From assembly GCF_044324875.1 (NCBI RefSeq), contig NZ_CP172185.1: a stretch of 64,000 nucleotides of DNA. One strand, given 5' to 3'. Numbering within the stretch: position 1 is the stretch's first letter; every line of letters starts with the position of its first letter. The stretch comes from Escherichia coli. Its GTDB lineage: Bacteria; Pseudomonadota; Gammaproteobacteria; Enterobacterales; Enterobacteriaceae. Shown here piece by piece: positions 18,560 through 37,409 of the stretch. The position numbers were made by a program, and so were the translations under genes. Under the pieces are notes generated by a model. That model was not told where the DNA came from. It saw only the letters and a program-made list of their open reading frames with translations, and ran no database searches.

Positions 18560-19255
18560 ACTATGCTTGAAGCCCCTTCCCCGCCGGATAAATAATATCC
18601 TTACGGCAATTGGTAACCGTATAAAAGGCCTGATGTTTTGAACTGCCGTTGACGGAGATGAAGTAATCTGCTTTTTTGGCAGCATCCAATAACGCATCAA
18701 TGGCAACGCGATCATTGTTGAGCTCAATTCATAGCGCCGGATACAATTTCAATAAGGCGTCTTTACCACGTTGCGTGGCATTTTTGTAATACTGTAAAAC
18801 ACCCGCTTTTTCCCGCGGAGATTCCGATACAACGGAGACGTTACGCTTGCTGGTATGGTTTCTGTCGGGAGGGTACTACCGATATCCTTACAAGCGTAGA
18901 GCTGTTCCATCATGCGTGCCAACAACAACATACGGATATCCAACCGTTCCCAGCGACGTAGGAACATCTCGCGAATGTTAATCCAGTACTGTAGTCGGCG
19001 ATCGCTATCACCAGATTCACAATCATAAAGAACCTCTGCAATATCAATAGTATACTTGAGAATTTGTTTCGATTCATTTTTCGTGCACAACATTTCGATA
19101 GCTTCGAGGGCATCATGGTATTCTTTGTGACTGAAGGTCCATGAAAGTAACGTATCGAGAATAATCCCTGTAGTTGCCAAAATGAGTTGATAACTACACA
19201 ATGATTTGTTTGTACAGAAGGAACGATTATTATATGGTCTTGTAGGGCAGAGCAC
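18560..19255 (-). pseudogene. Frameshifted gene remnant of unknown function at the left boundary of the island
   Basis: 168-aa ORF 18749-19255 continues in a different frame to about 18560 (ELNNDRVAIDALLDAAKKADYFISVNGSS...); no intact long ORF; no recognisable domain. Confidence 0.25.
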
Positions 19256-19372
19256 GTTGCTACCGTAACAGCGTTGAAGATAATTTGGTCGAGACTGTAG
19301 TGGACCAGTTTAAAATGTAGCAGAATTTTAAAAGTGTCAGGTGCATAGAATTAAAAAAATGGAACTATAAAA

Positions 19373-21106
19373 ATGGAAATCATGTTACCAAAAAACACCT
19401 TATATGATAGAGAGCAAAATATCTTTTTTGAAAAGGTTACGGCCTTAATTGGAGAAAATGGTGCTGGTAAATCCTCGATTTTACAATCCGTATTTATTAA
19501 CTGTTTAACAAAAAAATATCTACCAGAAACAAAGGTTGTTTGTTTTTCTTCTGGACAAAATGAGAAATACTCAACGTACTTCTCTGATTATCTTTCTCAT
19601 GAAAGGCAAGCAAATAGAGGTCTTAGCTTAGATTGTTGTTATTACGATAAATCATGGTCAAAGTTACTAATATTCATATCCACAATTTGTAAATCAAATG
19701 GTCTTGTTAGAAATTTTTTATGTGAGAAAGGCTATATTGATGTATCAGATGATAAAAATGATGATATATCAAGCAAGCTTACATTGACGGTCCGAGTAAA
19801 TTCGGCTTACGTTAATCGAGTAAAAATGGCATTAGCACAAGAAGAACAAGGTATTGAAAATACTTTAAGGTATTCAGCTTATCATAGGACTTTAGAAAGT
19901 TTCATTAATAATATTGTTAATGCTGATTATGATTTCGAGTCTCCACTTGAAGCTCAAGAGATCTTGCTAACTCATTCAAATTTTTTCAATCCATCATTTG
20001 AGGAAGGAGAAGATTCCTTTTTTGATCCTATCATAACATTTTTCACTCAAGCAGCAGATAATGATTACTTTATAATAAAACCATCATTACAGCTAGAGTT
20101 TAAAAATAATATCGAACTGAATGATATTAGTGATGGGGAATATCAAGTACTCTTTTTATACTCTTTGCTTGATATTTTTGATAGTCCTAATACTTTATTC
20201 TTATTAGATGAGATAGATTCCCATTTACATTACAAGAATATTGAGCTCTTATGGCATCGACTACATAGTATTAATGGTTATGCGATAACAACCACCCATC
20301 TATTAGACTCAATTACAGCTACTGATAATGATTTTAAAAACTTAAAGATTGTTGATAAAGGAAAAATAAAAGAAGATGATAAAATAAAAACTATAATAGA
20401 ACGTTTATCTGTCTTGACAAGAATATCAGACGTACAGTTCGAAGTGTGTCGTAAACTAGAAAACATTGTATTGATGGATGATTATAATGATTGGACTATT
20501 TTTTATGCCTTAGCAAAGAAAAAAGGACTTGATGTATCAAAGTTAGATGGCCTCCATGCAATAAAACAGTCCTCTGGTTACGATAATTTAAATCAAGAGT
20601 TCGCAAAACCAAAAATAGAGTGGATTAATTCGCTTTTAAATGTAAATACTGATAAAAAAGTCAAAAAAATATTCATGATCTGCGACAAAGATGAGGCTCC
20701 AATTACCTATCAGAAAGATGGAGTTCAAGTCAATGGAAGTGAATGTTCAAAACATATAGCGAAGTTAGAAAATAAAAACAAAAATAAAATATATCTCCTT
20801 GTCTGGAAAAGAAGAGAAATAAAAAACTACTTATTATCTTATACGGCATTGTCTCATCATGGATTTATCGGGCAAATAAACAATGGTGATCTGCCGGCTA
20901 ACAGTTATTTAAAAGAAAACGATCCTGGAGATAATTCAGCAATTAGCCGGCTTAACGTAAAACATTGCATCACAAAAATAATTGATTCTGATGGTATAGG
21001 ATTAGATATATCAAAACTTTACTCATATATAGAACTTATACCACCTGCTGAGATCAGTGAAGATATAGTGAATATGTACAATTTTTTGGTGGAGAAATTA
21101 AAATGA
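19373..21106 (+). CDS. OLD-family-like ABC ATPase with C-terminal Toprim-like region (putative nuclease/ATPase component)
   Basis: Walker A GENGAGKSS, ABC-signature-like ISDGEYQ, Walker B LFLLDEIDSHLH, H-loop TTTH; C-terminal DxD-type motif FMICDKDE; about 28% GC. Confidence 0.75.
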   Translation: MEIMLPKNTLYDREQNIFFEKVTALIGENGAGKSSILQSVFINCLTKKYLPETKVVCFSSGQNEKYSTYFSDYLSHERQANRGLSLDCCYYDKSWSKLLIFISTICKSNGLVRNFLCEKGYIDVSDDKNDDISSKLTLTVRVNSAYVNRVKMALAQEEQGIENTLRYSAYHRTLESFINNIVNADYDFESPLEAQEILLTHSNFFNPSFEEGEDSFFDPIITFFTQAADNDYFIIKPSLQLEFKNNIELNDISDGEYQVLFLYSLLDIFDSPNTLFLLDEIDSHLHYKNIELLWHRLHSINGYAITTTHLLDSITATDNDFKNLKIVDKGKIKEDDKIKTIIERLSVLTRISDVQFEVCRKLENIVLMDDYNDWTIFYALAKKKGLDVSKLDGLHAIKQSSGYDNLNQEFAKPKIEWINSLLNVNTDKKVKKIFMICDKDEAPITYQKDGVQVNGSECSKHIAKLENKNKNKIYLLVWKRREIKNYLLSYTALSHHGFIGQINNGDLPANSYLKENDPGDNSAISRLNVKHCITKIIDSDGIGLDISKLYSYIELIPPAEISEDIVNMYNFLVEKLK

Positions 21107-23004
21107 ACACCTCTTTATTTGAAGATCTACTTACACTAATCAAGAAAAAGAGTTCGATAAGAAATACAGAACAAGCAGTAGAGCTAATTTCATTATTTAT
21201 TTTTTTACATTATATAAAATTATATTTTTATGAAAATGATAAAAGATTCTCAGATATAAAAAACATATCAAGCAACAACATTAATGAAATTAAATATTAT
21301 TACCAGCAACTATATGAAAGCTTTATTTTATCGATAGATATAAAAAATATAAACCACGACATGCTTGAAAATCTCAGGAGCAAGATAGGTTTTTTAATTA
21401 ATAACATCAATAACCATGAAATAATCAAATATATAGATTATTCTCTTTCGCATATACATTCACTTACAGAGTTCTATCAATATGCAAATTCTTATCAATC
21501 TTTAATTCTTAGGATGGTTAATGAATCGGGTCGTTCAGGGGAATATGTTACTCCATCTGCTTTAGTTCAGCTCATGGTTGAAATGTTATCACCTACAGAT
21601 GGCACATCAATCTACGACCCAGCATGTGGAACTGGGGGTTTATTAATAGAGTCAGCACGATATATTAAAGGCAACAGTTTAAACAAAAACTTTAATTATT
21701 CCCTTATTGGTAATGACACATCATCATTTGCCTGTCTAATCTCAATTGTTAACCTTTTAATCAATAAAGAATTTAACTTTGAAATAATACTAAAAGATAG
21801 CTTAGATATAAATTATAAGAATAAAAAATATGACTTTGTTTTAACTAACCCACCATTTGGGAAAAAGAGCGGTTGGGATAATATTCATATTGACACACAT
21901 TATAAAGGACCTAATCTAGACTATTACTTCCTGGAGCATGTTATTGACTCTCTCGCTGTTAATGGCAAAGCAGCCATAATATTACCAGAGCGTTTTTTAT
22001 ATGATGTGAGTAAAGAGTGCATCACTCTTAAAGATAAGATCTTCCAAAATTATAATTTAGATTGTATTTTATCTATACCGTCAGGTGCATTGCTTCCTTA
22101 CACTGCAGTAAAATTATGTATTCTTTTTATAAGTAATTCTGGCCCAACAGATAGAATATTTTTCTACAATTTAAATAATGGTAAAAAATACTCACGTACA
22201 AATACTATAAAATTCGATGATTTTATAGATTTTTTAGAGTCAGCAAAAAATAGAACAATAACTGAACACTCCTGGATTATCAATATTAGTGATACACCTT
22301 CATCTTATAACTTACTCTTAAAAGATAAAGAGCGAAACTCATATGAGTTTCTTAGTGATTCTATAGTTAACATTGAACAGACAATACGTAATAATGAATT
22401 GTTACTAACCGAGTTGTCTTTATTAAGAGAAAAAATAGAGATCTTAGAGTCAACAATAAAAAATCATTCGCATGAATATGAATTTGAGAGACTTAAAGTT
22501 GGAAATATTGCATTAGTAAAATCCGGAAATTTATTACAAAAAAATAGACTATTATCCACTGGGCCAATTCCTGTATATGGTGGGAATGGAGTTATTGGAT
22601 ATAATTATGAGGCAATGGAAAATGGTGAAAATATTATTATTGGTAAGGTCGGAGCTCTTTGCGGAAACGTTCGGTATGTTCAAGGTGATATTTGGGTGAC
22701 AAATAACTCATTAATTATTAAGAATTATTTACCAAATAAAGTTTTAACACCCTACCTTGCAAAGTTATTATCTACTTTAAACTTAAGAAAGCTCGCCGTT
22801 GGTACCGCTCAACAATATTTAACCACAACACAAATAAAAAATGTAGAAATTAACATTCCACCTTTAACGACCCAGCATAAATTAAATATGTGGCTTGATG
22901 AGTTAGATAATACCCTTGAACAATATAATAAGCTCATTGAAAAAATAATGAATGATAAGCGAGAACTTAAAGAGAATTTGTATAAAGGTCTTTTAATAGA
23001 ATAG
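21103..23004 (+). CDS. N6-adenine DNA methyltransferase fused to a single HsdS-like target-recognition domain (M-S fusion)
   Basis: Motif I IYDPACGTGGLL, motif IV NPPFG, C-terminal TRD-like region; start ATG overlaps upstream stop (ATGA at 21103-21106); GGAG ribosome-binding site at 21091-21094. Confidence 0.8.
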   Translation: MNTSLFEDLLTLIKKKSSIRNTEQAVELISLFIFLHYIKLYFYENDKRFSDIKNISSNNINEIKYYYQQLYESFILSIDIKNINHDMLENLRSKIGFLINNINNHEIIKYIDYSLSHIHSLTEFYQYANSYQSLILRMVNESGRSGEYVTPSALVQLMVEMLSPTDGTSIYDPACGTGGLLIESARYIKGNSLNKNFNYSLIGNDTSSFACLISIVNLLINKEFNFEIILKDSLDINYKNKKYDFVLTNPPFGKKSGWDNIHIDTHYKGPNLDYYFLEHVIDSLAVNGKAAIILPERFLYDVSKECITLKDKIFQNYNLDCILSIPSGALLPYTAVKLCILFISNSGPTDRIFFYNLNNGKKYSRTNTIKFDDFIDFLESAKNRTITEHSWIINISDTPSSYNLLLKDKERNSYEFLSDSIVNIEQTIRNNELLLTELSLLREKIEILESTIKNHSHEYEFERLKVGNIALVKSGNLLQKNRLLSTGPIPVYGGNGVIGYNYEAMENGENIIIGKVGALCGNVRYVQGDIWVTNNSLIIKNYLPNKVLTPYLAKLLSTLNLRKLAVGTAQQYLTTTQIKNVEINIPPLTTQHKLNMWLDELDNTLEQYNKLIEKIMNDKRELKENLYKGLLIE

Positions 23005-23012
23005 ATCACAAT

Positions 23013-23040
23013 AGCAGGGTGTCCATAAAACACCCTGCTA
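23013..23040. terminator. Hairpin between the convergent methyltransferase and hsdR genes (likely bidirectional terminator)
   Basis: agcagggtg / caccctgct inverted repeat with a 9-nt loop. Confidence 0.5.
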
Positions 23041-23084: not shown

Positions 23085-26000
23085 TTAATAATGCTCCTCA
23101 ATATACCCATACGCCTTCTGGAACAACTCTTTATCTTTCCCTAGTCCAAACTGGGCCAAGGTCAGTAAAAGCGCCTTTTGGATTTCGCGCGGGCCACTGT
23201 TGGAATTTTGCCAGCCATCAAAGCGGGTAGCTTTCACAATTTTATCAATTTGCTCTACAACATCACCGATTAACTTAGGGGTAGTTTCCGGACGTGTTTC
23301 GAGGAAAAGCTTAGTCAACGCCTGTTTATTATCAGCTTCAGTTACTGGGCGCTCGCCCGTTTCGCGCTCGGCTTGAACGGTATCTTTCGCTGCATCCAAC
23401 AGGCCTTTCAACCAGTCAATGGCCTTGATAACACCAGCTTCATAGTCCTGACGCAGTTTTTCAAGGCGCTCGCCCAATGCCACAAATTTAGGATCATGAC
23501 TGCCGCGCAAACGTCCCATAAGATCAATCTCCAGGCGTTTGGCACGTTGTTCCTGCTCTTTAGCGGTCAGGGTAAAAATAGCGTGCTCGTCCATAACCAA
23601 CTCGTCAATATCATCGCGAATACGATTGATATCAGTATGCTCATGGATCATCTTGATTGTTTCGGGGCCAAGGGCAGCCCAAACAAGCGCACCTGTCTGC
23701 CCTACCGGACGCACCGATTCATAAATTTGCGCCAGCCATTTATAGTCCTGACGATAAGAGGTCAAAAAAGGATCTGGGTTGATAGCTGACCATAACTTGG
23801 ATAACACACCAAAGCTGGCAGCGAATTCATCGCGTTTCTCGTTGGTCGGCAGGCATTCCTGCGCGGCCATAATACCTTCAAAACCAGCTATGGACCGATC
23901 CACACCAGGGAAGAAGGACAAACATTTATTCAGTTGTAACGGCAATAGCTCTTTAAATGCCTCAATTCCCTCTACAACTCCTTCAATTTCTTCAGGGTTA
24001 TAGGCCAGAGCGGTACGCAGATTTTCGAAAACGCCGAGGTAGTCGATAATTAATCCCATGTCCTTGCGTACAGTATCGGTTTCGTACAACCGGTTGGTTC
24101 GGCACATGGCCTGAAGAAGAGTATGATCGCGTAGAGGCTTATCGAGGTACATGCAGTAGCAAATCGGGGCATCAAAGCCCGTAAGCAGCTTGGCGGTTAC
24201 GATAATAAGCTGTAATGGATGTTCAGGATCTTTAAAGCATTCAATCAGATCCTTTTGCACCTGTTCTTCGGCATCAATGTGCTGCCAGCGTTCAAAATCG
24301 ACTTGTTTGACTGGCAGCTCCAACTCATCATGCCATTTAAGCCAATCCTTGTTGAGCTTGTCTTTTTTGCCACCCTCTTCAACTTTAACCGGAGCCTGGT
24401 CAACGTTCATAACCACTTCAACCGCATCAAAACCAAGCTTTTCACCGAGCAAATAATACATCTGCACACAGGCTTCGCGATCGTATACCACAACCATGCC
24501 TTTCATCTTTTTCGGCATAACATGGTTGGTAAAATGCTCAGCAATATCATTACTCACCGCAGCCATACGCCTAGGGGATTTCAGCATGATTGCCAGCTTG
24601 CCTGCACGCCTGGACAATGCTGCTTTTTCTTCTTCATCCAGGTTGTTTTCGGTAGCCAGTTGCTCGAACTCTTCATTGATGGCATCACGATCCACTCGGA
24701 GTTCAGCCAGCCGAGGTTCGAACTTCACCGGGTTAGTTGCGCCATCCCGGATCGACTGCTTATAGCTATAGCGGCTCATATAGCGACCCGGATCTTCTTC
24801 GGCACCGAACAATTTGAACGTATTACGATCAATGCCAGAAATCGGAGTACCTGTCAGGCCATAGAAGTGGGCATTGGGCAACGCCCAGCGCATTTTCTCG
24901 CCTAATCCCCCTTCCTGTGTACGGTGAGCTTCGTCAACCAACACAATGATATTGTCACGGTTGTTCAGGCCATTAGGGTTGCTATCGTCAATTTCGATAT
25001 CTTTAAATTTAAAGATGGTGGTGATTAAAATGCCACGGCTGTCTTGTTCAATGTATTCACCCAGCTTTTTGCAGCTTTGCACTTTAATCAGATTCTTAAC
25101 GTCGGCTCCACCAAAGGTCTCGTTAATTTGGCTGTCCAGATCTCGCCGGTCCACAACGATAAGTACCGTCGGGTTTTTTAACGCATTATCGGCACGTAGC
25201 ATTTTGGCGGCGTAAAGCATCAACAAGGATTTACCCGATCCCTGGAAATGCCAAATAAGACCTTTTTTTGGATAGCCTCTGCGAACACGCTCAACGATTT
25301 GTTTTGCTGCTTCAAATTGCGGATAACGCGGCAAGATTTTAACGCGTTTAGGTGGAGTATTTTTGCCCGTTTTGACGGTTGAAAATAATGCGAAAGATTC
25401 CAGTAACTGCAATAAGGTTTGCGGATTTAACAAACTCTCACAGCTATTGAGTACCGATGCTAATCCCGGCAGAATCTCATCACGAAGCTCAGTATTATGC
25501 CAGGGTCCCCAGTCTTTAACTCGGGCATTAATGGCACCATAGGCAAAGGTTTTTCCTTCGCTGGCAAAGCACAGCAAGTTAGGTACAAAGAAAGATTCAA
25601 CATTTTTCCAGTAGTACTTTTTGCCACCCATGAAATCGGCAGCACCGTCTTGCCAGGTCACGCTGGGGCGTGTTGCGGTTTTAACTTCGCCCACTACTAG
25701 CGGTATGCCGTTCACATAAAGAACAATATCAAAATAGACTTCAGTGGCCGCGATATAGCGAACCTGCTGCGCCACCACAAAGTGGTTGTTCTCTATATTG
25801 TCAAAATCAATCAGATTGATGGTGATATGGTCGCCATTCTTACCAAAAGGCAAGGTTTTGTCGGCCATCAACCATTCCTGGAAGTTTTCATTGGCCTTTA
25901 CCAAGCCGGTATGGCGGGCTTCTAAAACCACTCCTCGCAGTTTGTAAATGACCTCATCGGCATAGTCAGGCTGTCTGCCGATATCAGGGTTTAACGAACA

Positions 26001-26147
26001 AAGCGCGTCTTTTAGCCACTCATCAACGAAGATATCCTGCGCTTGTTTAGGCAGGTTTTCACCGTGGCAGTAAGTCCACTTGACTCCGCTTAAACCTTTT
26101 AAACGGTCGATAATTCCATTTTCTGTGACGGTTTGTTCGTTAAACAT
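23085..26147 (-). CDS. hsdR: Type I restriction enzyme R subunit (HsdR)
   Basis: 1020 aa; PD-(D/E)xK-like DIVLYVNGIPLVVGEVK, Walker A QGSGKS, DEAH box VDEAHRTQ, GLTGTP. Confidence 0.9.
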   Translation of the reverse strand: MFNEQTVTENGIIDRLKGLSGVKWTYCHGENLPKQAQDIFVDEWLKDALCSLNPDIGRQPDYADEVIYKLRGVVLEARHTGLVKANENFQEWLMADKTLPFGKNGDHITINLIDFDNIENNHFVVAQQVRYIAATEVYFDIVLYVNGIPLVVGEVKTATRPSVTWQDGAADFMGGKKYYWKNVESFFVPNLLCFASEGKTFAYGAINARVKDWGPWHNTELRDEILPGLASVLNSCESLLNPQTLLQLLESFALFSTVKTGKNTPPKRVKILPRYPQFEAAKQIVERVRRGYPKKGLIWHFQGSGKSLLMLYAAKMLRADNALKNPTVLIVVDRRDLDSQINETFGGADVKNLIKVQSCKKLGEYIEQDSRGILITTIFKFKDIEIDDSNPNGLNNRDNIIVLVDEAHRTQEGGLGEKMRWALPNAHFYGLTGTPISGIDRNTFKLFGAEEDPGRYMSRYSYKQSIRDGATNPVKFEPRLAELRVDRDAINEEFEQLATENNLDEEEKAALSRRAGKLAIMLKSPRRMAAVSNDIAEHFTNHVMPKKMKGMVVVYDREACVQMYYLLGEKLGFDAVEVVMNVDQAPVKVEEGGKKDKLNKDWLKWHDELELPVKQVDFERWQHIDAEEQVQKDLIECFKDPEHPLQLIIVTAKLLTGFDAPICYCMYLDKPLRDHTLLQAMCRTNRLYETDTVRKDMGLIIDYLGVFENLRTALAYNPEEIEGVVEGIEAFKELLPLQLNKCLSFFPGVDRSIAGFEGIMAAQECLPTNEKRDEFAASFGVLSKLWSAINPDPFLTSYRQDYKWLAQIYESVRPVGQTGALVWAALGPETIKMIHEHTDINRIRDDIDELVMDEHAIFTLTAKEQEQRAKRLEIDLMGRLRGSHDPKFVALGERLEKLRQDYEAGVIKAIDWLKGLLDAAKDTVQAERETGERPVTEADNKQALTKLFLETRPETTPKLIGDVVEQIDKIVKATRFDGWQNSNSGPREIQKALLLTLAQFGLGKDKELFQKAYGYIEEHY

Positions 26148-26151
26148 ATAG

Positions 26152-27306
26152 TCAAACTCCTAGAAGCTCATATATTAATGCTTGTCTAAGATTAAAATAA
26201 TGTTCTTTTTTATCTCTCAGCACCTTCAATATTTTCTCGAGCGATTCCAATTTTTTTACTAAAATATCTGAGTCAGTAAATAATTTATTATGAATGAAGA
26301 TATCATCAAAAACTCTTACTGTTACTCTTTGCCTACCTGAAGTGCCTTCCATGTGATGAAGAGCATAATGCCTAAATTTCTTTGTTTTGATTATGTAATA
26401 ACCAAGTTTCTTTAGAAAATGATCTTCAAATTTTGATCTCATCACTATAAACTCAGTGGATCCCACAGCTATACTCTCTTCTGCAAGAAAATCAACAAAT
26501 GCTGCCTTACCATTTTCAAAACAAGGTGTGATTCTAGCCAAAAGGATATCATCTTTTCTAAATTTCATACCAGAAGATTTTCCTGACTTAGTTTCTCCTT
26601 TATAGTCTATATATGGAAGTTCAACATCTAAAGATGCCATATCAACATATGGTATTATTTCATCCACTGACCCAATCTTTGGATTAATTAAAAAAGAATC
26701 ACTTAATGAACTCCAGTCATTCTTTTTCCCAGCTGATGTTGTCGCCAGATAAATACCTACTTCAGCATCTATAACATCCTGATATAACTTTCTTACCGAT
26801 AATATAGTTTCATTAAGATGCATATAGCATTCATGGAATTTGTCAAGAATAACTAAGGCACTATTTTGTTTTTCTCTATCGAGAATATTAAATTTAAAGC
26901 TTACAACATCCTTCCATCTAATATGCTTATTAGTTGAACCAATAGTATTTTTTAACGTATGCTCAGCAAAACTTTCAGATTGAAAGATATATGGAAGCAA
27001 TCGACTTTCAAAACCATGATATTGCTTTGGCGTACATACAATAACCTTCTCACCACAATATCCTTCTCTATCAGCTATCGCGACTTTTCTTAACTGCGGA
27101 TTTCTAGTTAGATAAAGTATGTCTCCTGGGCTAAATTTCTTCCCAAAAGTTGGCCCCATATCATCAGGGGCGATTCCGTAGCGAGAGAAAAATATTTCAC
27201 AATTATCAAAGTCTTCTCCTCTTACACAATATTTAACATTAGGATCTAAATTATTCTTCTCCCATATGTTTTTTTCTTTTACTAAGTCAGAAAGAGTAAT
27301 CTTCAT
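26152..27306 (-). CDS. hsdS: Type I restriction-modification specificity subunit (HsdS), two TRDs
   Basis: 384 aa with two TRD-like halves and conserved HsdS segments; overlaps hsdM stop by 4 bp; very AT-rich. Confidence 0.85.
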   Translation of the reverse strand: MKITLSDLVKEKNIWEKNNLDPNVKYCVRGEDFDNCEIFFSRYGIAPDDMGPTFGKKFSPGDILYLTRNPQLRKVAIADREGYCGEKVIVCTPKQYHGFESRLLPYIFQSESFAEHTLKNTIGSTNKHIRWKDVVSFKFNILDREKQNSALVILDKFHECYMHLNETILSVRKLYQDVIDAEVGIYLATTSAGKKNDWSSLSDSFLINPKIGSVDEIIPYVDMASLDVELPYIDYKGETKSGKSSGMKFRKDDILLARITPCFENGKAAFVDFLAEESIAVGSTEFIVMRSKFEDHFLKKLGYYIIKTKKFRHYALHHMEGTSGRQRVTVRVFDDIFIHNKLFTDSDILVKKLESLEKILKVLRDKKEHYFNLRQALIYELLGV

Positions 27307-28766
27307 ATCTTTCCTCCATTAAAAAAGTAAGAAGAGTTCATATTCAATTCTTTTCTAAACGATTGCCATTTACTTATCTCCCTTGAGAGATTTAAATCTT
27401 TAAATTCTTTTTCTATATACACAGGAACATTTAGATTAAAATCGTTATCTTCGACTTCCTCGATAGAGGCTATATACGTAGTAATATTAGAGACATCCTT
27501 CAAACTAATGTAAGAGTTATAGATATTCATTATATTAATATCATTTAAATAAGCATGATTCCTAGTGGTAATAAGTTCATCATAGGCATTTATAAATAAT
27601 ATTTTCCCTTTTAGCTCAGTTCGTTTATTGCAATTCAACAAAATAATACATGCCGGCATAGGTGAATTATAAAACAATCCAGGGCCAAGACTAATTACAC
27701 ATTCAATAATATCTGTTTGAATAATTTTTTCTCTGAGCTGTTTCTCACTTTCTCTGAAGAGAACTCCATTTGGCCAGAGCATAGCTGCGCGACCAGTATC
27801 AGGCTTCAGGCTTTTAATTATATGGGTATAAAACGCATAATCAGCACAGCCCTGCGGTGGTACACCATAAAGATTACGACCATACGGATCAGCGGCAAAC
27901 TTGTCACGATTCCATTTCTTAATGGAGTACGGTGGGTTAGCAAAAATCACATCAAACTGCTTGAGCCGATCGTTTTCAATAAACTTTGGTTCAGCCAGAG
28001 TATCACCGCGCAGCACATCAAATTCTTCAATATCGTGCAGGAACATATTCATACGAGCAATAGCGGAAGTCAGCAGGTTCACTTCCTGGCCATAAAGGTG
28101 CACAGAGCGCCACTCTTCTCCTCTTGCACGAAGATCCATCACTGCATTTAGCAACATCCCTCCAGTGCCACACGTTGGATCATAGGCTGTTTCACCCGGT
28201 TTTAAGCCCATAATGCGCGTCATTAAATGCACGACTGTTCGGTTGGTGTAGAACTCTGCTGCCGTATGACCGGAATCATCAGCGAACTTTTTAATCAGGT
28301 ATTCGTAGGCTTCACCAAGATCATCCTGGGCGACAGATTTAATGCCGAGCGGAATTTTACTGAAATGTTCAATCAGATCAGCCAGCAGATGATCGGGAAG
28401 GCGCTCTTTATTGGTCCACTGTGCATCACCGAAGACGCCATGTAAACGCGGGTTATTGGCTTCAATTAGTCGAAGCGCATTCTGGATCGCTTCACCAATG
28501 TTTTTACTGGTATTGCGTACCTTTTCCCAACTGGCTTCAGAGGGAATATTGAAACGGTGAAACATCGGCATGGCGGCATATTCAGCATCACCTTCATGGA
28601 GTTCCAGCGCTTCGTTATATTCTTCCAGATAGACATCTGACAGGCGTTTGTAAAACAGCAACGGGAAGATATACTGCTTGTAGTCTGATGCGTCAATTTG
28701 GCCACGAAGAAATTCGGCGGCTCCCCAGAGCAGCTCTTCCAGCTTTTTATTACTCATAGTACTCAT
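27303..28766 (-). CDS. hsdM: Type I N6-adenine methyltransferase subunit, paralogue 2 (HsdM)
   Basis: 487 aa; motif I YDPTCGTGGML, motif IV NPPY; start overlaps upstream hsdM stop (ATGA at 28763-28766); 3' third of the gene is markedly AT-rich. Confidence 0.9.
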   Translation of the reverse strand: MSTMSNKKLEELLWGAAEFLRGQIDASDYKQYIFPLLFYKRLSDVYLEEYNEALELHEGDAEYAAMPMFHRFNIPSEASWEKVRNTSKNIGEAIQNALRLIEANNPRLHGVFGDAQWTNKERLPDHLLADLIEHFSKIPLGIKSVAQDDLGEAYEYLIKKFADDSGHTAAEFYTNRTVVHLMTRIMGLKPGETAYDPTCGTGGMLLNAVMDLRARGEEWRSVHLYGQEVNLLTSAIARMNMFLHDIEEFDVLRGDTLAEPKFIENDRLKQFDVIFANPPYSIKKWNRDKFAADPYGRNLYGVPPQGCADYAFYTHIIKSLKPDTGRAAMLWPNGVLFRESEKQLREKIIQTDIIECVISLGPGLFYNSPMPACIILLNCNKRTELKGKILFINAYDELITTRNHAYLNDINIMNIYNSYISLKDVSNITTYIASIEEVEDNDFNLNVPVYIEKEFKDLNLSREISKWQSFRKELNMNSSYFFNGGKI

Positions 28767-30262
28767 ACCTCGAACCCTTCTTTGATAAGCAGGGCCTCCA
28801 GCTCCTCTTCTGCTTTTTCCAGCTCAGCCAGCTTCCGTTGAAAATCTTTGAGCGCTTCTTCCACAGTAATGGTTTCTTCTTCGAGTGGCTTTTGCACATA
28901 ACGAGCAATATTTAGATTGAAGTCATTTTCTTCAATCTCCTTCAGAGGAACCCAGCGTGCAACGCCTTCGATTTCTTTTGCATCTGGCCCTTGTTGCGCC
29001 TGGTCATGATAGATTTGGTATATTTCATCGGCCTGCTTGTTGGACAGCGTATTCTGCGCACGCCCCTTGGTATAGATTTCTTCAGCATTGATGATCAATA
29101 CATGATCTTTATGCGCTGCCGGACGTGATTTACGCAACACCAAAATACACGCAGGAATCCCAGTCCCATAGAACAGGTTGGAAGCAACACCAATAATCGC
29201 CACAATGCGATTCTCTTGCAGTAATTTGGTTCGAATTGCCCCCTCTGCGCCGCCACGAAACAGCACACCATGAGGTAATACGACAGCCATACGTCCATTG
29301 TCGTTAAGTGAAGCAAACATATGCTGCACCCAGGCAAAATCACCATTTGTTTTAGGCGCCAGGCCATATCGCTTACGGCCATAGGGATCGTTCGACCACA
29401 GATCGTATCCCCATTCTTTCAAGCTAAACGGTGGGTTGGCAACAACGCAGTCAAAGGTTTCTAAACGATCGCTTTTTAAAAATTTAGGTTCGCGTAACGT
29501 ATCCCCTCGGACAATATCGAAATCTTCCTGTCCATGCAGGAACAGATTCATACGCGCAATAGCTTCCGTCGTTAAGTTCTTTTCCTGACCCTTGATTTTT
29601 AGTAAACGCGGATCACCACCATTTTCTTTTACATGGTGGATGGTCTCAAGCAGCATACCACCGGTACCACAGGCGGGATCGTAGACACTCTCACCGGCTT
29701 TTGGATCAAGAATGTTAACCATCAAACGAACGATAGTTCGTGGGGTATAGAACTCACCGGCTTTCTTATTGGCTTTGTCTGCAAAGCGTTTGATCAGATA
29801 CTCGTATGCGCGCCCCATATCATCGTCACGGACACTAGAAACGCCAAGGTTCACCTTATTGAAGTGATTGAGTAACGTAGCCAGTAACTCATCAGAAAGG
29901 CGTTCTTTATTGGTCCAGCTGGCATCGCCAAAAATGCCATGCAGTTTAGGGTTTGCCAGTTCTATACCACGGAAGGACTCTTTTAAAGCCTGACCGATGT
30001 CCTTGGTCTCAGCGAAAACATCGCGCCAGTGGCAATTTTCAGGTATCTGAATACGGTGAAACATCTTGCCCTTGGCAAGCTCTGCATCCCCAATGCTCTC
30101 CATCGCATCGGCAAATTCTTCGTCATACACGTCACAAATGCGCTTGAAGAACAGGATGGGGAAAATGTACGTTTTGTAATCTGACGCATCAATGGGCCCT
30201 GTAATAATATGGGCTGCATGCCATAGATGGGCCTCGAGATCTTTTAGGTTAATCAGTGTCAT
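28763..30262 (-). CDS. hsdM: Type I N6-adenine methyltransferase subunit, paralogue 1 (HsdM)
   Basis: Start chosen at MTLINLKDLEAHLW (ATG 30260-30262); GEFYTPRTIV, YDPACGTGGML, NPPF motifs; 499 aa. Confidence 0.9.
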   Translation of the reverse strand: MTLINLKDLEAHLWHAAHIITGPIDASDYKTYIFPILFFKRICDVYDEEFADAMESIGDAELAKGKMFHRIQIPENCHWRDVFAETKDIGQALKESFRGIELANPKLHGIFGDASWTNKERLSDELLATLLNHFNKVNLGVSSVRDDDMGRAYEYLIKRFADKANKKAGEFYTPRTIVRLMVNILDPKAGESVYDPACGTGGMLLETIHHVKENGGDPRLLKIKGQEKNLTTEAIARMNLFLHGQEDFDIVRGDTLREPKFLKSDRLETFDCVVANPPFSLKEWGYDLWSNDPYGRKRYGLAPKTNGDFAWVQHMFASLNDNGRMAVVLPHGVLFRGGAEGAIRTKLLQENRIVAIIGVASNLFYGTGIPACILVLRKSRPAAHKDHVLIINAEEIYTKGRAQNTLSNKQADEIYQIYHDQAQQGPDAKEIEGVARWVPLKEIEENDFNLNIARYVQKPLEEETITVEEALKDFQRKLAELEKAEEELEALLIKEGFEV

Positions 30263-30505
30263 TGTTGTCTCTTTTCGATCCTGCAGTGCTTGAACTCTCA
30301 GCAACTCATGGATTTCACAGTAAAAAAGCAAGTAAAGCGATTCCACAACCACCTGAGCGTTCAATATGTATGACGCCTTTACCCAAGTTGCTTAAATCAA
30401 GGAAATTGCCTGAGATAATACTCTGGCATCAGAATGATACCAAGTTGAAGGGCTGATTTCCGCATCAATACCTTGTGGTAATAGGGGATTACTCTTTTAC
30501 CCTTA

Positions 30506-31156
30506 TTGGCGCAAAATGGCGGCATTTCCTCATTTCTCCTTCGGAGCATCTTACGCGCTATAACCACTCTCGTTTTTTCCTATTCCCATGCAGATGAAGC
30601 ACTACGCAATGAACTTGAGAAGCATCTCTCCCCGCTGAAGCGAACCGGGAAGATCACAACATGGCACGATCGCCGCATCGTTCCTGGTCAGGAGTTCGAA
30701 CGTCAGATCGACCACTATTTTTCGCAAGCAGATATCATCCTGATCCTGATCAGCAGTGACTTTATTGCTTCTGATTACTGCTATCAGGTAGAGATGAAAA
30801 ACGCACTGGAACGGCATGACCGGGGCGAGGCGGTGGTCATTCCGGTAATTTTAAGAAACTGTGCATGGCATCAGTTAGAATTCGGCAGCATTATGGCGGC
30901 GACTATCGACGGTAAACCCATCACTAAGTTTGCCACCCACGATGAAGGCTACGTTCAGGTCGTCGAGGCTGTCTCGCGTGCCATTGCCCGGATGGAAGCC
31001 AAAAAACCACAGCAAACCATACATATCCCTTCACCGGCTCCGGCGAATCCGATCTTTCAGGGAGTAGATTCCGTTTTTACACCGTGTTCAAGCAACCTTA
31101 TTCTATCTGTTATAGCCAGGATAATGTTGTTCGAAACAGTATTAACGAAACTCTAA
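30506..31156 (+). CDS. TIR-domain protein (ThsB-like, single-domain); start codon uncertain (TTG)
   Basis: LVFSYSHADE...ADIILILISSDFIASDYCYQVEMKNAL matches bacterial TIR core motifs; no in-frame ATG upstream of the TIR beta-strand, and no clear ribosome-binding site. Confidence 0.6.
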   Translation: MAQNGGISSFLLRSILRAITTLVFSYSHADEALRNELEKHLSPLKRTGKITTWHDRRIVPGQEFERQIDHYFSQADIILILISSDFIASDYCYQVEMKNALERHDRGEAVVIPVILRNCAWHQLEFGSIMAATIDGKPITKFATHDEGYVQVVEAVSRAIARMEAKKPQQTIHIPSPAPANPIFQGVDSVFTPCSSNLILSVIARIMLFETVLTKL

Positions 31157-32231
31157 GCCTTGCTGATAACAGCCAGACTCTTGGTTTTCGTGCTCTGATG
31201 GGAGGCTTCAGTCGTGGAACTTCACGAGACGAACTATTGACCAATGAAGGTATGTCGGAACATCTCTGGGAAATGTTCTTCGGGCTAATCAAGCAAAGAA
31301 TGTCCCGATAATTTGCCATATCACAGTCGGGCATACTGCCCGATTTTTGTGCTGTCATTATTGGCAATATCTCAATAGGCGTTGAGAAATGGTGCAATTT
31401 AATCTTGCCAGAGCGCTGTTACTTGGGGACGAAATTAATGGGCTCCTGCTGTAGTTACATCAACGCCTGTCTATACAAAAACAGGCGTAGCAAATTCATG
31501 CAGGCAAATACGTTTTCTTAAGCGGCACCAATAGCTTAGTCTCTATATCCACTTGCTCATAGTTTTCCACTAACGCGCGTACCAAATCATCCAGCGTCCA
31601 TAGCGTCAACGGGATTGTAGAACGATCGGCCTCATAACGCGCATCCTTGCTGAATCCGCCGGTACTAACATACAGCCCGCGATCGTCTTTATGGCGGCCA
31701 CCGATAAAGCTACGGATTTGCTGGCTGCTCATCTGTTCCCGCCGGTGCTTCACCTCAACAATAATGCGCGGATTTTCAAACCCAAATCCGTCAGGGGAAG
31801 CAATGATATCTTTCCCACGGTCAGCACCCGCAGGCGATACCTGAGTTTTATATCCCATGCTACGTAATACGCCAGCGACCAGATTCTGCATCTCATCCCA
31901 GTCGAGACGGTTGATACGATCCTTGATGCCTTCAAAAGCAATCATTTCCATGTCGCGCAGAGGATTAGAAACAACCTCATCCTCTTCACCTGAAACAGGT
32001 ACTTCCGGCACGACATCTGAGACAGGCTTTTTGCCCTGCACTAATTCATTCACGGCAAAATCAGGCACCTGAAAAACTGTCAGCGTTGAGCCAAGGGTGT
32101 TTCTGGTTGCATCACTCAGACTATCGCGCTTAATCTCTTCCGTATTCCACTTCACTTTACGGGCGATGCCCATGCCATCTTCAAGCCACTCGGCATGAAA
32201 CTCAAAATCTGAGGCAATTTTCCCTATTAAA

Positions 32232-33893: not shown

Positions 33894-36800
33894 CTAAACC
33901 TGACGCCTATCAAGACTATTATAAATAGCCTCAATCTCACCTTTCAGGTTATCACCAGAGTAAACCATCGATGTATCGTATCGTTCATATCGCGCTTCCC
34001 GTGTCGCACTAAACCAGTTGAACGATCCCACGCATAGCAAACCATCATCACCAATAACAATTTTGCTATGAACACGGTTTACCAGCTTTGTAGCAATACC
34101 CAGCGCATTCAGTTTCTCCAGCGCCGCTTTAAGGTTCTGCTGCTTCTCTTTTCGCTTCTCAAAATCTTTATGTTCAGTGTTATAGCTTCTGTCAGTGACT
34201 ATCGTGACGTTAATTCCACGTGAACACGCCGCAATCATGGAATCAAGAAAACCCGTTTGCTCCAGCTTTTGCCAGGTCAGCCATGGAGAAACTATCGTGA
34301 TGTGTTTATCGGTATTTTCAAACGTCTGATTCAGGAAATTATCATGCTGCTCCACACCATGGAGTGTGTAGATTTTGGTCTCGGAAGTTTTTAAATCCTT
34401 ACGCTCTTTATAATCAAAAGAGAGCGCATTCTTCTCGGACTCAAAGAGATATTTTGCCAGTAATCCCCGCGGAGATGAGGCTGGCTGGATCTCAAACAGG
34501 TCCATATCGCCGAAGACCAGGAAACTGTCCTTCGCACGGGAGACAGCAACGTTCAGCATGCTGTTATCGCTATCAATAAACCCGCCATCCTCATGCTTTG
34601 AATAGACTGGCGAGAATATAACAATCGCTCTTTCCGCCCCCTGAAGAGAATGCACGGTGCCCACGGTGAGCGACGTTTCATTCGCGCCTGTACTGATGCC
34701 TTGTTTACCCAGCGCCTGTTTGATAGTCGATACCTGCGCGCTAAAAGGCGTCACGATACCGACAACTTCATGAAGCGATTTGCCGTAATGCGCTTCAATA
34801 TCTTGCTGGTTATCTGTCAGCCAGGCAGCTATCGTTTCAGCCTCAAGCAAATTATATCGACTTCCGCTACTTGCCAGCGCTCCTTTACCATCAATATGGA
34901 GATAACCCATTGCGGGCATTAAATTGCTCTCTTCACGCCCTCTTTTAGGCAACAACTTACCGTGATAGCAGAGCGTATTACAGTATCCAATAATATTATC
35001 GAAGCACCGGCGGTGTTCATATAGGTACATACCACGAGCCAGTTCGGGATCATATTGATAGCGCGAAGCAAACTGAGCTATTTTCATAACGCTGCCAGAT
35101 GCGGCACTTTTACCAAGGTCTGCGATTGCCGTATATTTCTCGGTAATCTCTTCTTGCGTACTGCCAGACAGAATTTTTTCCGCCAGCATGTTACCGATAT
35201 CAATCGCAGGAGCAATACTCCATATTGGCGGGATCTGCTCCGTATCGCCAATCACTAATGCCTTCTTAGCTAATGCAAACGAGGCAGCAGCCACTTCAGG
35301 AAGCACCTGTCCGGCTTCATCGACAATGAGTAAATCGGCAAAATCATACAAATAACTTTTCTCGAATTTACGTTGTCCTTTGTGCTCACTTATCTGCATA
35401 TTGCCGGGCAGCATATAGCATGTCATCACCACACATGGAATGAGTTTCATTCGACGTTGCCAACGGGCAGTTACTCCTTTAGCGCCTTTTTTCTTCTTCT
35501 CTTCCTGCAGATCATCAATTCTGGCCATATCCATCAGCCAACGACCTTCCCAGTAGTGAGTCGTCAGTAAAAATGCAGGGAAGCGAATCTGCGTATCAGC
35601 CAGTTCATCGGCCTGTGAGAAGCTCAGTTCCTCGTCGCCCTCATACCCTAAATCAAGTGTCAGCCTCTGCCACTCCTGAACCGCCTGCTGTTCTTTAAGA
35701 ACGATTTCATGGGCGGAGTCAATCTGCTTCCGGTATGTTGTTTGCTCGCGTTCAGCGGAATTGAGCAGCCCATCAATATTACGTTCGATAGTTTCAGGAT
35801 CAGACCACTGATTTCCTGCAATCAGCGCGCCTAATTTATCTTCGAGAAACAGCTGTATTTGGTACTGTCGCTTATTGCGAACCGCCGGGAGCCAGGAAAA
35901 TAATGAATAGATCAGTGATTCACCGGCGCGATATTTTTTCCATTCCGTTTTAGCACTCTTCAGTAGAGTAACTTTTTGTTCTTGCCCGGAGAGTAATTTA
36001 TTTAAATTATCGAGATATTGCTCAATGTTATCAGCAATAAGCTCACGCGCCGCCCGAACCTGGCTTAACGTTTGCCATGTTGCGTTCAGTCTTATCAGTT
36101 GCTCGGATTTTGCTGCCAACTGACCATGCAGGAGTTCAATGACCTTTTCAGGGGATGAACACTCTTTTTCAGGAAAGGCTGCCTTAGCCTTCTCCAGATA
36201 AAACAGCAGTGCATCCTCTACATACTCTTTTGACTCAACCTGGTTGAAGAAATCTTCAGTTTGATATTTTTTGGCGGCCTCAGCTTTACGAGTGCTTGAG
36301 GGAAAATAAGCGCCGAAGCTTTTCAGCTCTGGCAACCATCGTCCGGCCATCGCACCGGTGCCCTGGGAAAAATCTTTCCCGAACGCCTCGATAATGTTCG
36401 TGACAGCCTGGTTATTCGTTGAGGTCGCGATAATGACCGGAGGCTCAGATTTTTCGAGAGCCGCTCGGGCCCACTGCGTGGCGATGATAGAAAGCACCAG
36501 CGTGGTTTTTCCGGTTCCCGGAGGGCCATTAACAGCAAGGATATCGCCATGTCTGGCATCCAGAAAATGGCTTAAGGCATCGCGCTGAGCCTTTGCCAGC
36601 GGAAACTTATCTCCGGAGTGTCCAAGCCTGTCGCTGAATTTTGCTCCTGGGGCCAGCAAAGACTCTGCAGCATGAACCTCTCGCGAGGCGAAGCGATTGA
36701 AGAGTGGCACATCCTTCTTGCAAACAAGCAGGTGATCATAAAGCGAAAGGATATGGAAACTGGCACCGCCAGATTGCGCCGTTTTAACAATATAACCGTG

Positions 36801-37409
36801 CTCAGCGAGTTCATATTGCTCAGGATTTTTAATCCAGTCGCCGGCAACGTTCTTCAGCAGCCTCTCTGAATCATCCAGATATTGACGCCAATCCTGCTGC
36901 AAGGCTGCATATCGTGCTTCCCGTTCTTCATCCGTTTCGGCAGTGTTATCAACGCTGTCATCAAACTTGATAGAGAATGACGTATGTGTCGTTTTATATT
37001 TGTCATACTGCTCAATCTCACCAATCGAAAATGCCCCTTTTGGCAAAGGTTCAAGCAGGTCTCTGGGAATGGAGGTCGCTGGCGTCGGGTATAAAAAACC
37101 CTCACGGCTTAGCAAGGCTGGCGTCACTAGCGGGGTAACAATATCAGGCACGCCTGCGGAACGGTCCTTACCATGCTGCAGTAACCGAAAATAAACTTTT
37201 GGGCGCAAGACGACATCGACCGTTTCGACATCGTCTTTTTCTCCCTCAAAAAATTTACTGACAATCGCTTCGTCAAGACGTCCCGCCGCTATCCCATGCC
37301 AGTGAGTGAAATTTTGGGCGTCTTTCCGTTCAAAGCTGCCCTTTCCTGACTCAGCATCCGCAAGCGAGTTGCGCCAGTATGAGGCAAACCCTAAAGCATT
37401 TTCATCCAT
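33894..37409 (-). CDS. SF1 (Upf1/DNA2-like) helicase fused to a C-terminal PLD-family (HKD) nuclease domain; Mokosh type II-like single-protein defence candidate
   Basis: 1171 aa; Walker [11 protein letters not shown], Walker [10 protein letters not shown], motif [19 protein letters not shown]; C-terminal [19 protein letters not shown] (HxK-x4-D-x6-GSxN). Confidence 0.8.

Follow-up and report, generated by a model that had tools for sequence, protein, structure and literature searches.

A gene pair encoding an ABC ATPase bearing a predicted Toprim-like domain and a methyltransferase-specificity fusion, linked to type I restriction-modification genes

The gene pair and its products

The locus described here is a pair of overlapping genes in a 64,000-nt stretch of an Escherichia coli chromosome (contig NZ_CP172185.1; the whole stretch is referred to as the window), situated in the leuX-tRNA island adjoining fim and nan. 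Gene 1, hereafter X (19373..21106, + strand, 577 aa, ATG start; RefSeq 'AAA family ATPase', WP_096860774.1), encodes an ABC ATPase bearing a predicted Toprim-like C-terminal domain, and gene 2, hereafter MS (21103..23004, + strand, 633 aa, ATG start; RefSeq 'N-6 DNA methylase', WP_049036999.1), encodes an HsdM protein fused to half an HsdS. The two open reading frames (ORFs) share an ATGA, as an earlier note on this DNA had claimed. They are not a chance ORF pair; full-length homologs of both occur together in many genera, and the X-MS pair is an accessory to restriction-modification (RM) systems of type I, dependent on the neighboring one. The low guanine-plus-cytosine content previously reported was reproduced (pair, 0.298; window, 0.468; adjacent hsdR, 0.467), and the pair does lie in a defense island beside a type I system, whose genes are convergent with it on the - strand (23085-30364).

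The cassette measures ~3.8 kb and carries its own leader. A conserved non-coding leader or promoter region upstream of gene 1 (19186..19372, +) forms its left edge; ~185 bp of it are common to E. coli, Salmonella and Enterobacter cloacae, and the DNA further upstream is unrelated. Promoter-like hexamers were located in the leader at 19257-19284 and 19289-19316, in a number not above the shuffled expectation. A structured RNA or riboswitch in the leader was judged unlikely (no Rfam match, fold z = +1.16). Beyond gene 2, a hairpin read from the sequence (AGCAGGGTG-N9-CACCCTGCT, 23013..23039) lies between the convergent stop codons and is a possible bidirectional terminator; it is overlapped by a weaker terminator-like site of the - strand, and the number of sites returned by a terminator scan of the locus was not above the shuffled expectation. 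A literature search by the RefSeq accessions of the pair gave no match.

The ABC ATPase domain of X occupies residues 1-320 (19373..20332, +). Its motifs were confirmed at residues 27-35 (GENGAGKSS, with Walker A K33), 252-258 (ISDGEYQ, signature S253-D254-G-E256-x-Q258), 275-286 (LFLLDEIDSHLH, with Walker B D279-E280) and 306-309 (TTTH, H-loop H309), with a Q-loop region at S60/N63 and a variable helical insert at approximately residues 120-240. Pfam matched X to ABC-type ATPase families only (AAA_21, AAA_15 and SMC_N), within residues 13-300. The top PADLOC match was AriA (3e-15, 54.9 bits over part of the domain), followed by other defense ABC ATPases, and the family profile searched against PDB sequences retrieved PtuA (3e-10) and AriA (6e-4) over residues 13-308. 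An AlphaFold2 model of X was built on 24 homologs (predicted local distance difference test score, 85.5), and at full length its best PDB fold matches were Ts OLD of Thermus, GajA, retron Eco8, PtuA and AriA. X is an OLD/AriA/PtuA-type ABC ATPase, in agreement with the OLD-type call made earlier. The catalytic residues of the ATPase and the DxD of the C-terminal domain were invariant across 32 sequences with a mean column identity of 27%. Some homologs of X (locus L008, 3943-6147; P0132; ~6 other clusters; 731-747 aa) carry an extra N-terminal domain of ~155 aa ahead of the ATPase, which could be an added sensor domain.

The C-terminal domain (approximately residues 360-577; 20450..21103, +) is Toprim-like at the level of predicted fold. 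Predicted strand 1 ends in D369 and is followed by an invariant D373-W374; an invariant DxD (D438 and D440, within FMICDKDE, residues 434-441) follows strand 3, and further on stands a W478-x-R480-R-E-I-[KE]-N-Y486 motif, a motif geometry that fits a Toprim fold in the model. Fold comparison with the PDB gave AriB, Bp OLD and the retron Ec67 Toprim, with Ts OLD and GajA lower, and Foldseek against the AlphaFold database gave, outside the family itself, ABC-ATPase fusions named OLD or GajA and one DUF4435 protein. Sequence profiles gave no such signal: Pfam returned no match, Toprim and DUF4435 included, for residues 320-577 or for 32 diverse members; PADLOC models, HEC models included, returned none with E-values allowed up to 10; and a profile search of the PDB with the domain returned a spurious HpaR match only (E 0.028). 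The earlier Toprim-like call agrees with the predicted fold and the invariant DxD, and we conclude from the model that X is probably an OLD/PARIS-like ATPase-nuclease with a very divergent Toprim domain, for which sequence itself gives no proof. Among 1.84 billion representatives the domain family comprised 143 clusters (50% identity), almost always at the C-terminus of 565-745-aa proteins. A likely nuclease fold can in this way be assigned to a domain missed by current profile libraries.

Several known families were considered for X, or for the pair, and rejected. For MADS, the NCBIfam MAD2 score was 59.9 bits against a cut-off of 720, PADLOC mad3 matched residues 244-316 only, mad2 reached 100 bits, and no other mad genes were found nearby. 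Matches to BREX, to TIGR04435 ('restriction system-associated AAA ATPase') and to RecF were at the level of motifs and far below the cut-offs. An anticodon nuclease of the PrrC/RloC type was rejected since no such model was among the PADLOC or NCBIfam matches and the C-terminal fold is Toprim-like.

Gene 2 consists of an N6-adenine methyltransferase (MTase) domain (residues 131-397; 21493..22293, +; Pfam N6_Mtase 6e-43) and a single target-recognition domain (TRD; residues 460-615; 22480..22947, +; Pfam Methylase_S 1.8e-15), the latter flanked by helices at residues ~401-459 and 601-633. This composition, with no nuclease domain, is the one that had been proposed, and the motifs IYDPACGTGGLL and NPPFG were confirmed. 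MTase motif I (DPACG, residues 172-176) and motif IV (NPPF, residues 249-252) were strictly conserved in 29 family members, and PADLOC assigned MTase_I (1.6e-62) and Specificity_I (3.6e-26). The MTase part was 29% identical to an EcoAI-type HsdM over 371 aa. A full-length homolog of known structure was found in PDB 7EEW, an HsdM-S1/2 fusion of 638 aa from Vibrio vulnificus YJ016 (phmmer E 1.7e-87; MS residues 8-612 aligned to chain positions 7-616, with the TRD motif PVYGGNGVIG kept in both). The family has been described as a 'minimal intact type I methyltransferase', and a later paper reports that the 7EEW protein dimerizes to recapitulate an M2S1 methyltransferase. The MS family is compact, with ~50 clusters at 32-100% identity followed by a sharp fall to generic HsdMs. 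Mean pairwise identity within it fell from 53% in the TRD to 46% in the MTase domain and 28% at the N-terminus. An HsdR of the same family as MS was not found nearby, the only HsdR being that of the neighboring PacII-like M1M2S system, to whose HsdMs MS was 26-30% identical.

Linkage to type I genes and evolutionary history

Gene neighborhoods were compared in ~85 loci, made up of 72 metagenomic loci (from a scan with the C-terminal alignment) and 13 genome or plasmid contexts (from exact-protein look-ups and annotated plasmids). X always lay directly 5' of hsdM or of an M-S fusion, with hsdR adjoining. The order X then hsdM or MS was seen in all 70 metagenomic loci that could be judged, with a gap of -4 to +5 nt in 69 of them; hsdR ended 0-3 nt upstream of X in 47 of 50 metagenomic loci, and the 13 genome and plasmid contexts agreed. 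Co-occurrence in other genomes, which the earlier note had left to be checked, was thereby confirmed in many genera, with strict linkage and co-evolution.

In the main form, X is embedded in a complete operon, hsdR(~771 aa)-X-hsdM-hsdS; 54 metagenomic loci have this form, as do plasmids of Shewanella and Vibrio and an E. coli element resembling an integrative and conjugative element (ICE). The HsdRs of this form are full-length EcoAI/FtnUII-family equivalogs, and their PD-(D/E)xK motif was at least 90% conserved in 34 of them. Many type I operons of the EcoAI family have X as a 'fourth gene', for which the sole annotation is 'AAA family ATPase'; ICEs and plasmids carrying them were found in Vibrio, Aeromonas, Shewanella and Enterobacteriaceae. 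An intermediate form, hsdR-X-MS(670 aa), was seen in 4 loci, its M part being 86% identical to the embedded HsdM and fused to one TRD. In the pair form, X is followed by an MS of 612-655 aa. The pair was collinear with hsdR and immediately 3' of it in Vibrio crassostreae, V. parahaemolyticus, Snodgrassella, an Acidiferrobacterales metagenome-assembled genome and 2 metagenomic loci; in Acinetobacter, mcrBC lay between hsdR and the pair; and in E. coli, Salmonella, Enterobacter cloacae and 12 metagenomic loci the pair and hsdR were convergent. The HsdRs beside the pair are of four or more unrelated types.

Of 5426 complete E. coli genomes, 102 (~2%) carried an identical pair. All six genes were present in these 102 genomes, 7 further genomes had the type I system without the pair, and none had the pair without the type I system; the 7 genomes lacking the pair carried insertion sequence elements after hsdR. 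The pair gave no plasmid match at the DNA level and none in phages, and the embedded form was found on four plasmids by protein-level search.

Sequence divergence was then compared between the genes. Identities to the window for X and MS in five comparisons were 95/87, 88/79, 61/47, 59/38 and 43/34%, with HsdR at 98, 98, 28, 86 and 44%, respectively. The divergence of X tracked that of MS (rank correlation 0.99, n = 7, values not independent) and did not track that of HsdR. Against Vibrio, the window HsdR and HsdM1 were 86% and 88% identical, with X at 59% and MS at 38%; against Snodgrassella, X was 61% and MS 47% identical beside an unrelated type I system (HsdR 28% over 201 aa). Judged by these identities, the pair and the neighboring type I system have separate histories. 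All 5 MS proteins compared scored higher against the EcoAI-type HsdMs encoded after X (157-204 bits) than against the HsdMs neighboring them (60-127 bits), so that the X-MS cassette appears to derive from an EcoAI-type X-hsdM-hsdS unit; on this evidence it is best described as an offshoot, lacking the R subunit, of the four-gene hsdR-X-hsdM-hsdS operon.

Within embedded operons X was 41% identical where HsdR was 86% and HsdM 89% identical (range for the flanks 86-89%). X therefore changes, or is exchanged, much faster than its flanks, as expected of a sensor in an arms race. The HsdS downstream of X in these operons was hypervariable (25-31% identity). By the identities within the MS family its TRD is 'frozen', unlike the diversifying restriction specificity of the classical HsdS at the same loci.

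Further genes accompany some embedded operons. A protein of 648-672 aa is encoded after hsdS in many of them (L002, 12512-14530; L008, 8834-10780; L048, 10891-12909), with GHKL-ATPase-like motifs (DNGxGF and GxxGxG) near the N-terminus and no NCBIfam or PADLOC match; those of L002 and L008 are homologous (23% identity, E 2e-19). It may be a fifth component or a separate defense gene. A SIR2-family gene directly follows hsdS in others (L010, 7562-10451; L025, 11566-12708), with a DUF87/HerA-like ATPase next in L010, which points to a SIR2-HerA system added at this locus. The E. coli embedded operon (L002/L003) adjoins RhuM, MobI, HTH_17 and DUF927 genes, flanks that we take to resemble the variable region of an SXT/R391-type ICE.

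Possible roles of the pair

Known systems were compared with the pair to place it. PARIS consists of an ABC ATPase plus Toprim and is triggered by Ocr or another anti-restriction protein, with cleavage of tRNA. Its AriA and AriB (DUF4435/Toprim) are separate proteins, whereas X holds both parts in one chain; the AriA match of X (55 bits) covers part of the domain, the AriAB model reached 25 bits, no DUF4435/AriB sequence signal was found in X, and PARIS is not tied to hsdM or MS genes, to which X is obligatorily linked. X was not assigned to PARIS. With the OLD family (class 1, P2 and Ts OLD; class 2, GajA) X shares ABC ATPase motifs and fold, but it lacks a Pfam or NCBIfam match to OLD or Toprim and has Asp instead of Glu at the end of strand 1. 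OLD-family genes stand solo or beside UvrD (GajB), a retron reverse transcriptase or AriA/AriB, whereas the neighbors of X are always hsdR and hsdM or MS. In HEC-04, an ABC ATPase-TOPRIM fusion is embedded in Hma systems and both active sites are needed for defense (Payne et al., 2024, preprint). X likewise is a single-chain ABC ATPase plus predicted Toprim embedded in a methylation-based defense system; the host system differs, being Hma in HEC-04, and PADLOC HEC models do not match the C-terminal domain of X. Modules of OLD-ABC plus Toprim are also a recognized back-up effector class in BREX loci.

Two further systems are built on type I enzymes. PrrC, an ABC-type NTPase-nuclease whose gene lies in the EcoprrI type IC locus, is silenced by the RM complex and released by T4 Stp. 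It resembles X as an NTPase-nuclease fusion encoded among hsd genes, and the embedded hsdR-X-hsdM-hsdS operon is a positional analog; it differs in being an anticodon nuclease with another C-terminal domain, and in the place of its gene between hsdS and hsdR. In Ronin, an HsdMS lacking the R subunit cages the toxin RonA, with ArdA, Ocr and Aop1 as triggers and without need of MTase activity (Silas et al., 2023, preprint). The likeness to Ronin is one of architecture only: in each, a type I MTase without R is closely linked to an effector gene, and a further RM system is often adjacent. Ronin differs in having HsdM and HsdS as two proteins and a membrane protein of 61 aa as effector; the window encodes a fused M-S and a 577-aa ATPase-nuclease as candidate effector, with no small transmembrane ORF involved.

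Classical type I RM is matched by MS in its HsdM-type N6-adenine MTase and its HsdS-type TRD, and differs in that MS has no cognate HsdR. The 7EEW protein resembles MS over the full length (a single HsdM plus one TRD plus helices) and covers gene 2 only; the available part of the text on it mentions neither an upstream ATPase-Toprim gene nor a role beyond type I methylation. The earlier statement that the pair is not a described system held in part: there is no PADLOC or NCBIfam model for gene 1 and no PADLOC model for the pair, whereas the structure of the gene 2 family has been solved (7EEW). What is already known is that structure and the general theme of an ABC ATPase-nuclease tied to methylation-based defense. 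What is undescribed in PADLOC, NCBIfam, Pfam and the searchable literature is the ATPase-Toprim family of X, its near-obligate position between hsdR and hsdM, and the derivative with a fixed TRD and no R subunit.

The reading favored here, to which a probability of roughly 0.45 was given, is that X and MS form an RM guardian or decoy comparable to PrrC, PARIS and Ronin; it was preferred because the data match the established logic of RM guardians. MS would dimerize into (MS)2, an M2S1-like methyltransferase core recognizing one fixed, symmetric target, and X would combine in one chain an OLD/PARIS-like ABC ATPase and a metal-dependent nuclease of Toprim type. In an uninfected cell X would be kept inactive by binding the MTase core, which would be M2S1 in embedded operons and (MS)2 in the window. 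An anti-restriction protein, either a DNA mimic such as Ocr or ArdA or a Stp-like peptide, would then occupy or distort the core, and X would be freed or activated through its ATPase, whereupon its Toprim nuclease would cut DNA or tRNA and the infection would be aborted. MS in the window would serve mainly as bait or decoy and as antidote for X, and the cassette would back up the adjacent PacII-like type I system; Ocr and ArdA are reported to bind the MTase core of PacII-type systems (PMC9613975). The domain architecture, the conservation of catalytic residues and of the TRD, the gene linkage and the co-evolution of X with MS are observed; we infer the binding of X to MS, the trigger, the substrate and the abortive outcome from the comparisons above.

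If this guardian or decoy role is real, the pair would be a third mechanistically distinct tripwire for anti-restriction proteins built on a type I MTase core, after PrrC and Ronin, and would be wired to a PARIS/OLD-type nuclease. The arrangements hsdR-X-hsdM-hsdS, hsdR-X-MS and free X-MS beside an unrelated type I system would form a natural series in which a restriction enzyme has turned decoy. The module is tractable, being 3.8 kb long, present in ~2% of complete E. coli genomes and provided with an MS partner family of known crystal structure (7EEW).

Several points weigh against the guardian or decoy role. Binding of X to MS, triggering by anti-restriction proteins and toxicity of X are proposals. 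Given the strict conservation of motifs I and IV in the MTase of MS, methylation probably matters, and this is equally or more compatible with a true RM role. A conserved TRD could also be expected of an RM system of fixed specificity, and co-localization with type I genes could be partly inherited from the ancestral operon and not selected.

The next reading, that of a new type of RM system, was considered unlikely while retaining appreciable weight. Here (MS)2 would methylate a fixed symmetric site and X, taking the position of HsdR on the MTase core, would cleave or nick unmarked DNA in an ATP-driven manner; in embedded operons HsdR and X would be alternative nuclease subunits sharing one M2S1 core. 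This is the reading of the earlier note, in which an OLD-type nuclease replaces the R subunit and the RM-like system is self-contained. In its favor, the genes for X and MS overlap and co-evolve, the MTase motifs of MS are strictly conserved, the ATPase and DxD residues of X are intact, and the pair has no HsdR of its own family; at 26-30% identity to the neighboring HsdMs, it is unlikely that MS borrows the R subunit of these. GajA and other OLD-family enzymes are reported to be DNA nickases or nucleases (PMC8136825).

The genomic setting tells against a replacement of HsdR. The dominant habitat of X is a complete R-M-S operon with a nuclease-proficient HsdR, in which a second restriction subunit is unneeded, and because the embedded HsdRs keep their PD-(D/E)xK motif X does not stand in for the R subunit. 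The pair is never found without a full type I system adjoining (0 of 102 in E. coli), and its TRD is the best-conserved region of MS, whereas true specificity subunits at the same loci diversify. The proposal of a self-contained system was therefore not upheld. To our knowledge, no OLD-family member reads methylation status. The broader reading of a new RM type keeps its share of probability because the MTase motifs are conserved and methylation-sensitive cleavage is compatible with the data; if X were a true alternative restriction subunit, it would represent a new class of ATP-dependent restriction enzyme, and EcoAI-family operons would carry two nucleases on one specificity core.

It is improbable that MS is instead a second methyltransferase-specificity module that uses the HsdR of its neighbor and adds a palindromic specificity, with X as an accessory in its own right, for instance a regulator or an exonuclease acting after cleavage. 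Fusions of this kind that use a separate HsdR were named 'Type IMS' by Dryden's group, whose engineered EcoKI M-S fusion was functional with HsdR in vivo and in whose account half-S subunits dimerize to give symmetric specificities (PMC3510504). The V. vulnificus homolog (7EEW) was described as belonging to a type I operon, in most taxa the pair comes immediately 3' of hsdR, and a natural hsdR-X-MS(670) with an HsdR of its own family exists. Yet MS is conserved beside HsdRs of four or more unrelated families, it is nearest to EcoAI-type HsdMs and not to those that partner the adjoining HsdRs, and type I subunits do not complement across families (PMC3510504). The TRD is frozen, and the constant presence of X is left unexplained by this reading. 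The weakest account, an orphan methylase beside a stand-alone class 1 OLD-like nuclease, draws on the clustering of defense genes in islands, this one also holding Mokosh II, a ThsB-like TIR protein and gene remnants, but mere adjacency is effectively excluded by the comparative data, namely the 4-nt gene overlap, the order X then M or MS in 70/70 loci, the divergence rank correlation of 0.99 and a compact MS family with many members on contigs that carry X homologs.

The neighboring type I system and other genes of the island

The type I genes convergent with the pair begin, in window coordinates, with hsdR (23085..26147, -, 1020 aa; NCBIfam TIGR00348, 5e-143), whose homologs carry HSDR_N; the Vibrio HsdR to which it is 86% identical stands directly upstream of the Vibrio pair. 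It is followed by hsdS (26152..27306, -, 384 aa), which is hypervariable and 23-31% identical to hsdS of other genera, by hsdM2 (27303..28766, -, 487 aa), an m4C-type (N4-methylcytosine) M2 subunit by its AAEF and NPPY motifs, and by hsdM1 (28763..30364, -, longest ORF 533 aa), an m6A-type (N6-methyladenine) M1 subunit by its AGEF and NPPF motifs. With the RefSeq start HsdM1 has 499 aa and its gene ends at about 30262. HsdM1 and HsdM2 are paralogs (46% identical). The M1/M2 subunit definition was taken from work on non-canonical PacII-like m6A/m4C type I systems (PMC9613975), of which the AGEF/NPPF plus AAEF/NPPY pair, read at motif level, is the signature. Between E. coli strains hsdS is swapped (27% identity where HsdR is 99.9% identical), hsdM2 varies along with it (80%), and hsdR and hsdM1 are >99.5% identical.

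Other genes of the island were recorded alongside. An unannotated 167-aa ORF between nanS and gene 1 (18749-19252, -) matched residues 515-645 of PADLOC DpdD (1.6e-27) and probably represents what is left of a Dpd (7-deazaguanine DNA modification) cluster; it lies outside the stretch conserved with Salmonella and Enterobacter. A ThsB-like TIR protein (30506-31153, +, 216 aa) has a Salmonella homolog of 327 aa and is maybe truncated, because its match covers only profile positions 2-177 of 319, and a 224-aa ORF (31496-32170, -) corresponds to only the C-terminal two thirds of the PADLOC candidate PDC-S02; from this coverage both look like partial defense genes. Further along, a 1170-aa protein (33894-37406, -), annotated by RefSeq as 'AAA domain-containing protein', is full-length MkoC of Mokosh type II (PADLOC, 1686 bits).

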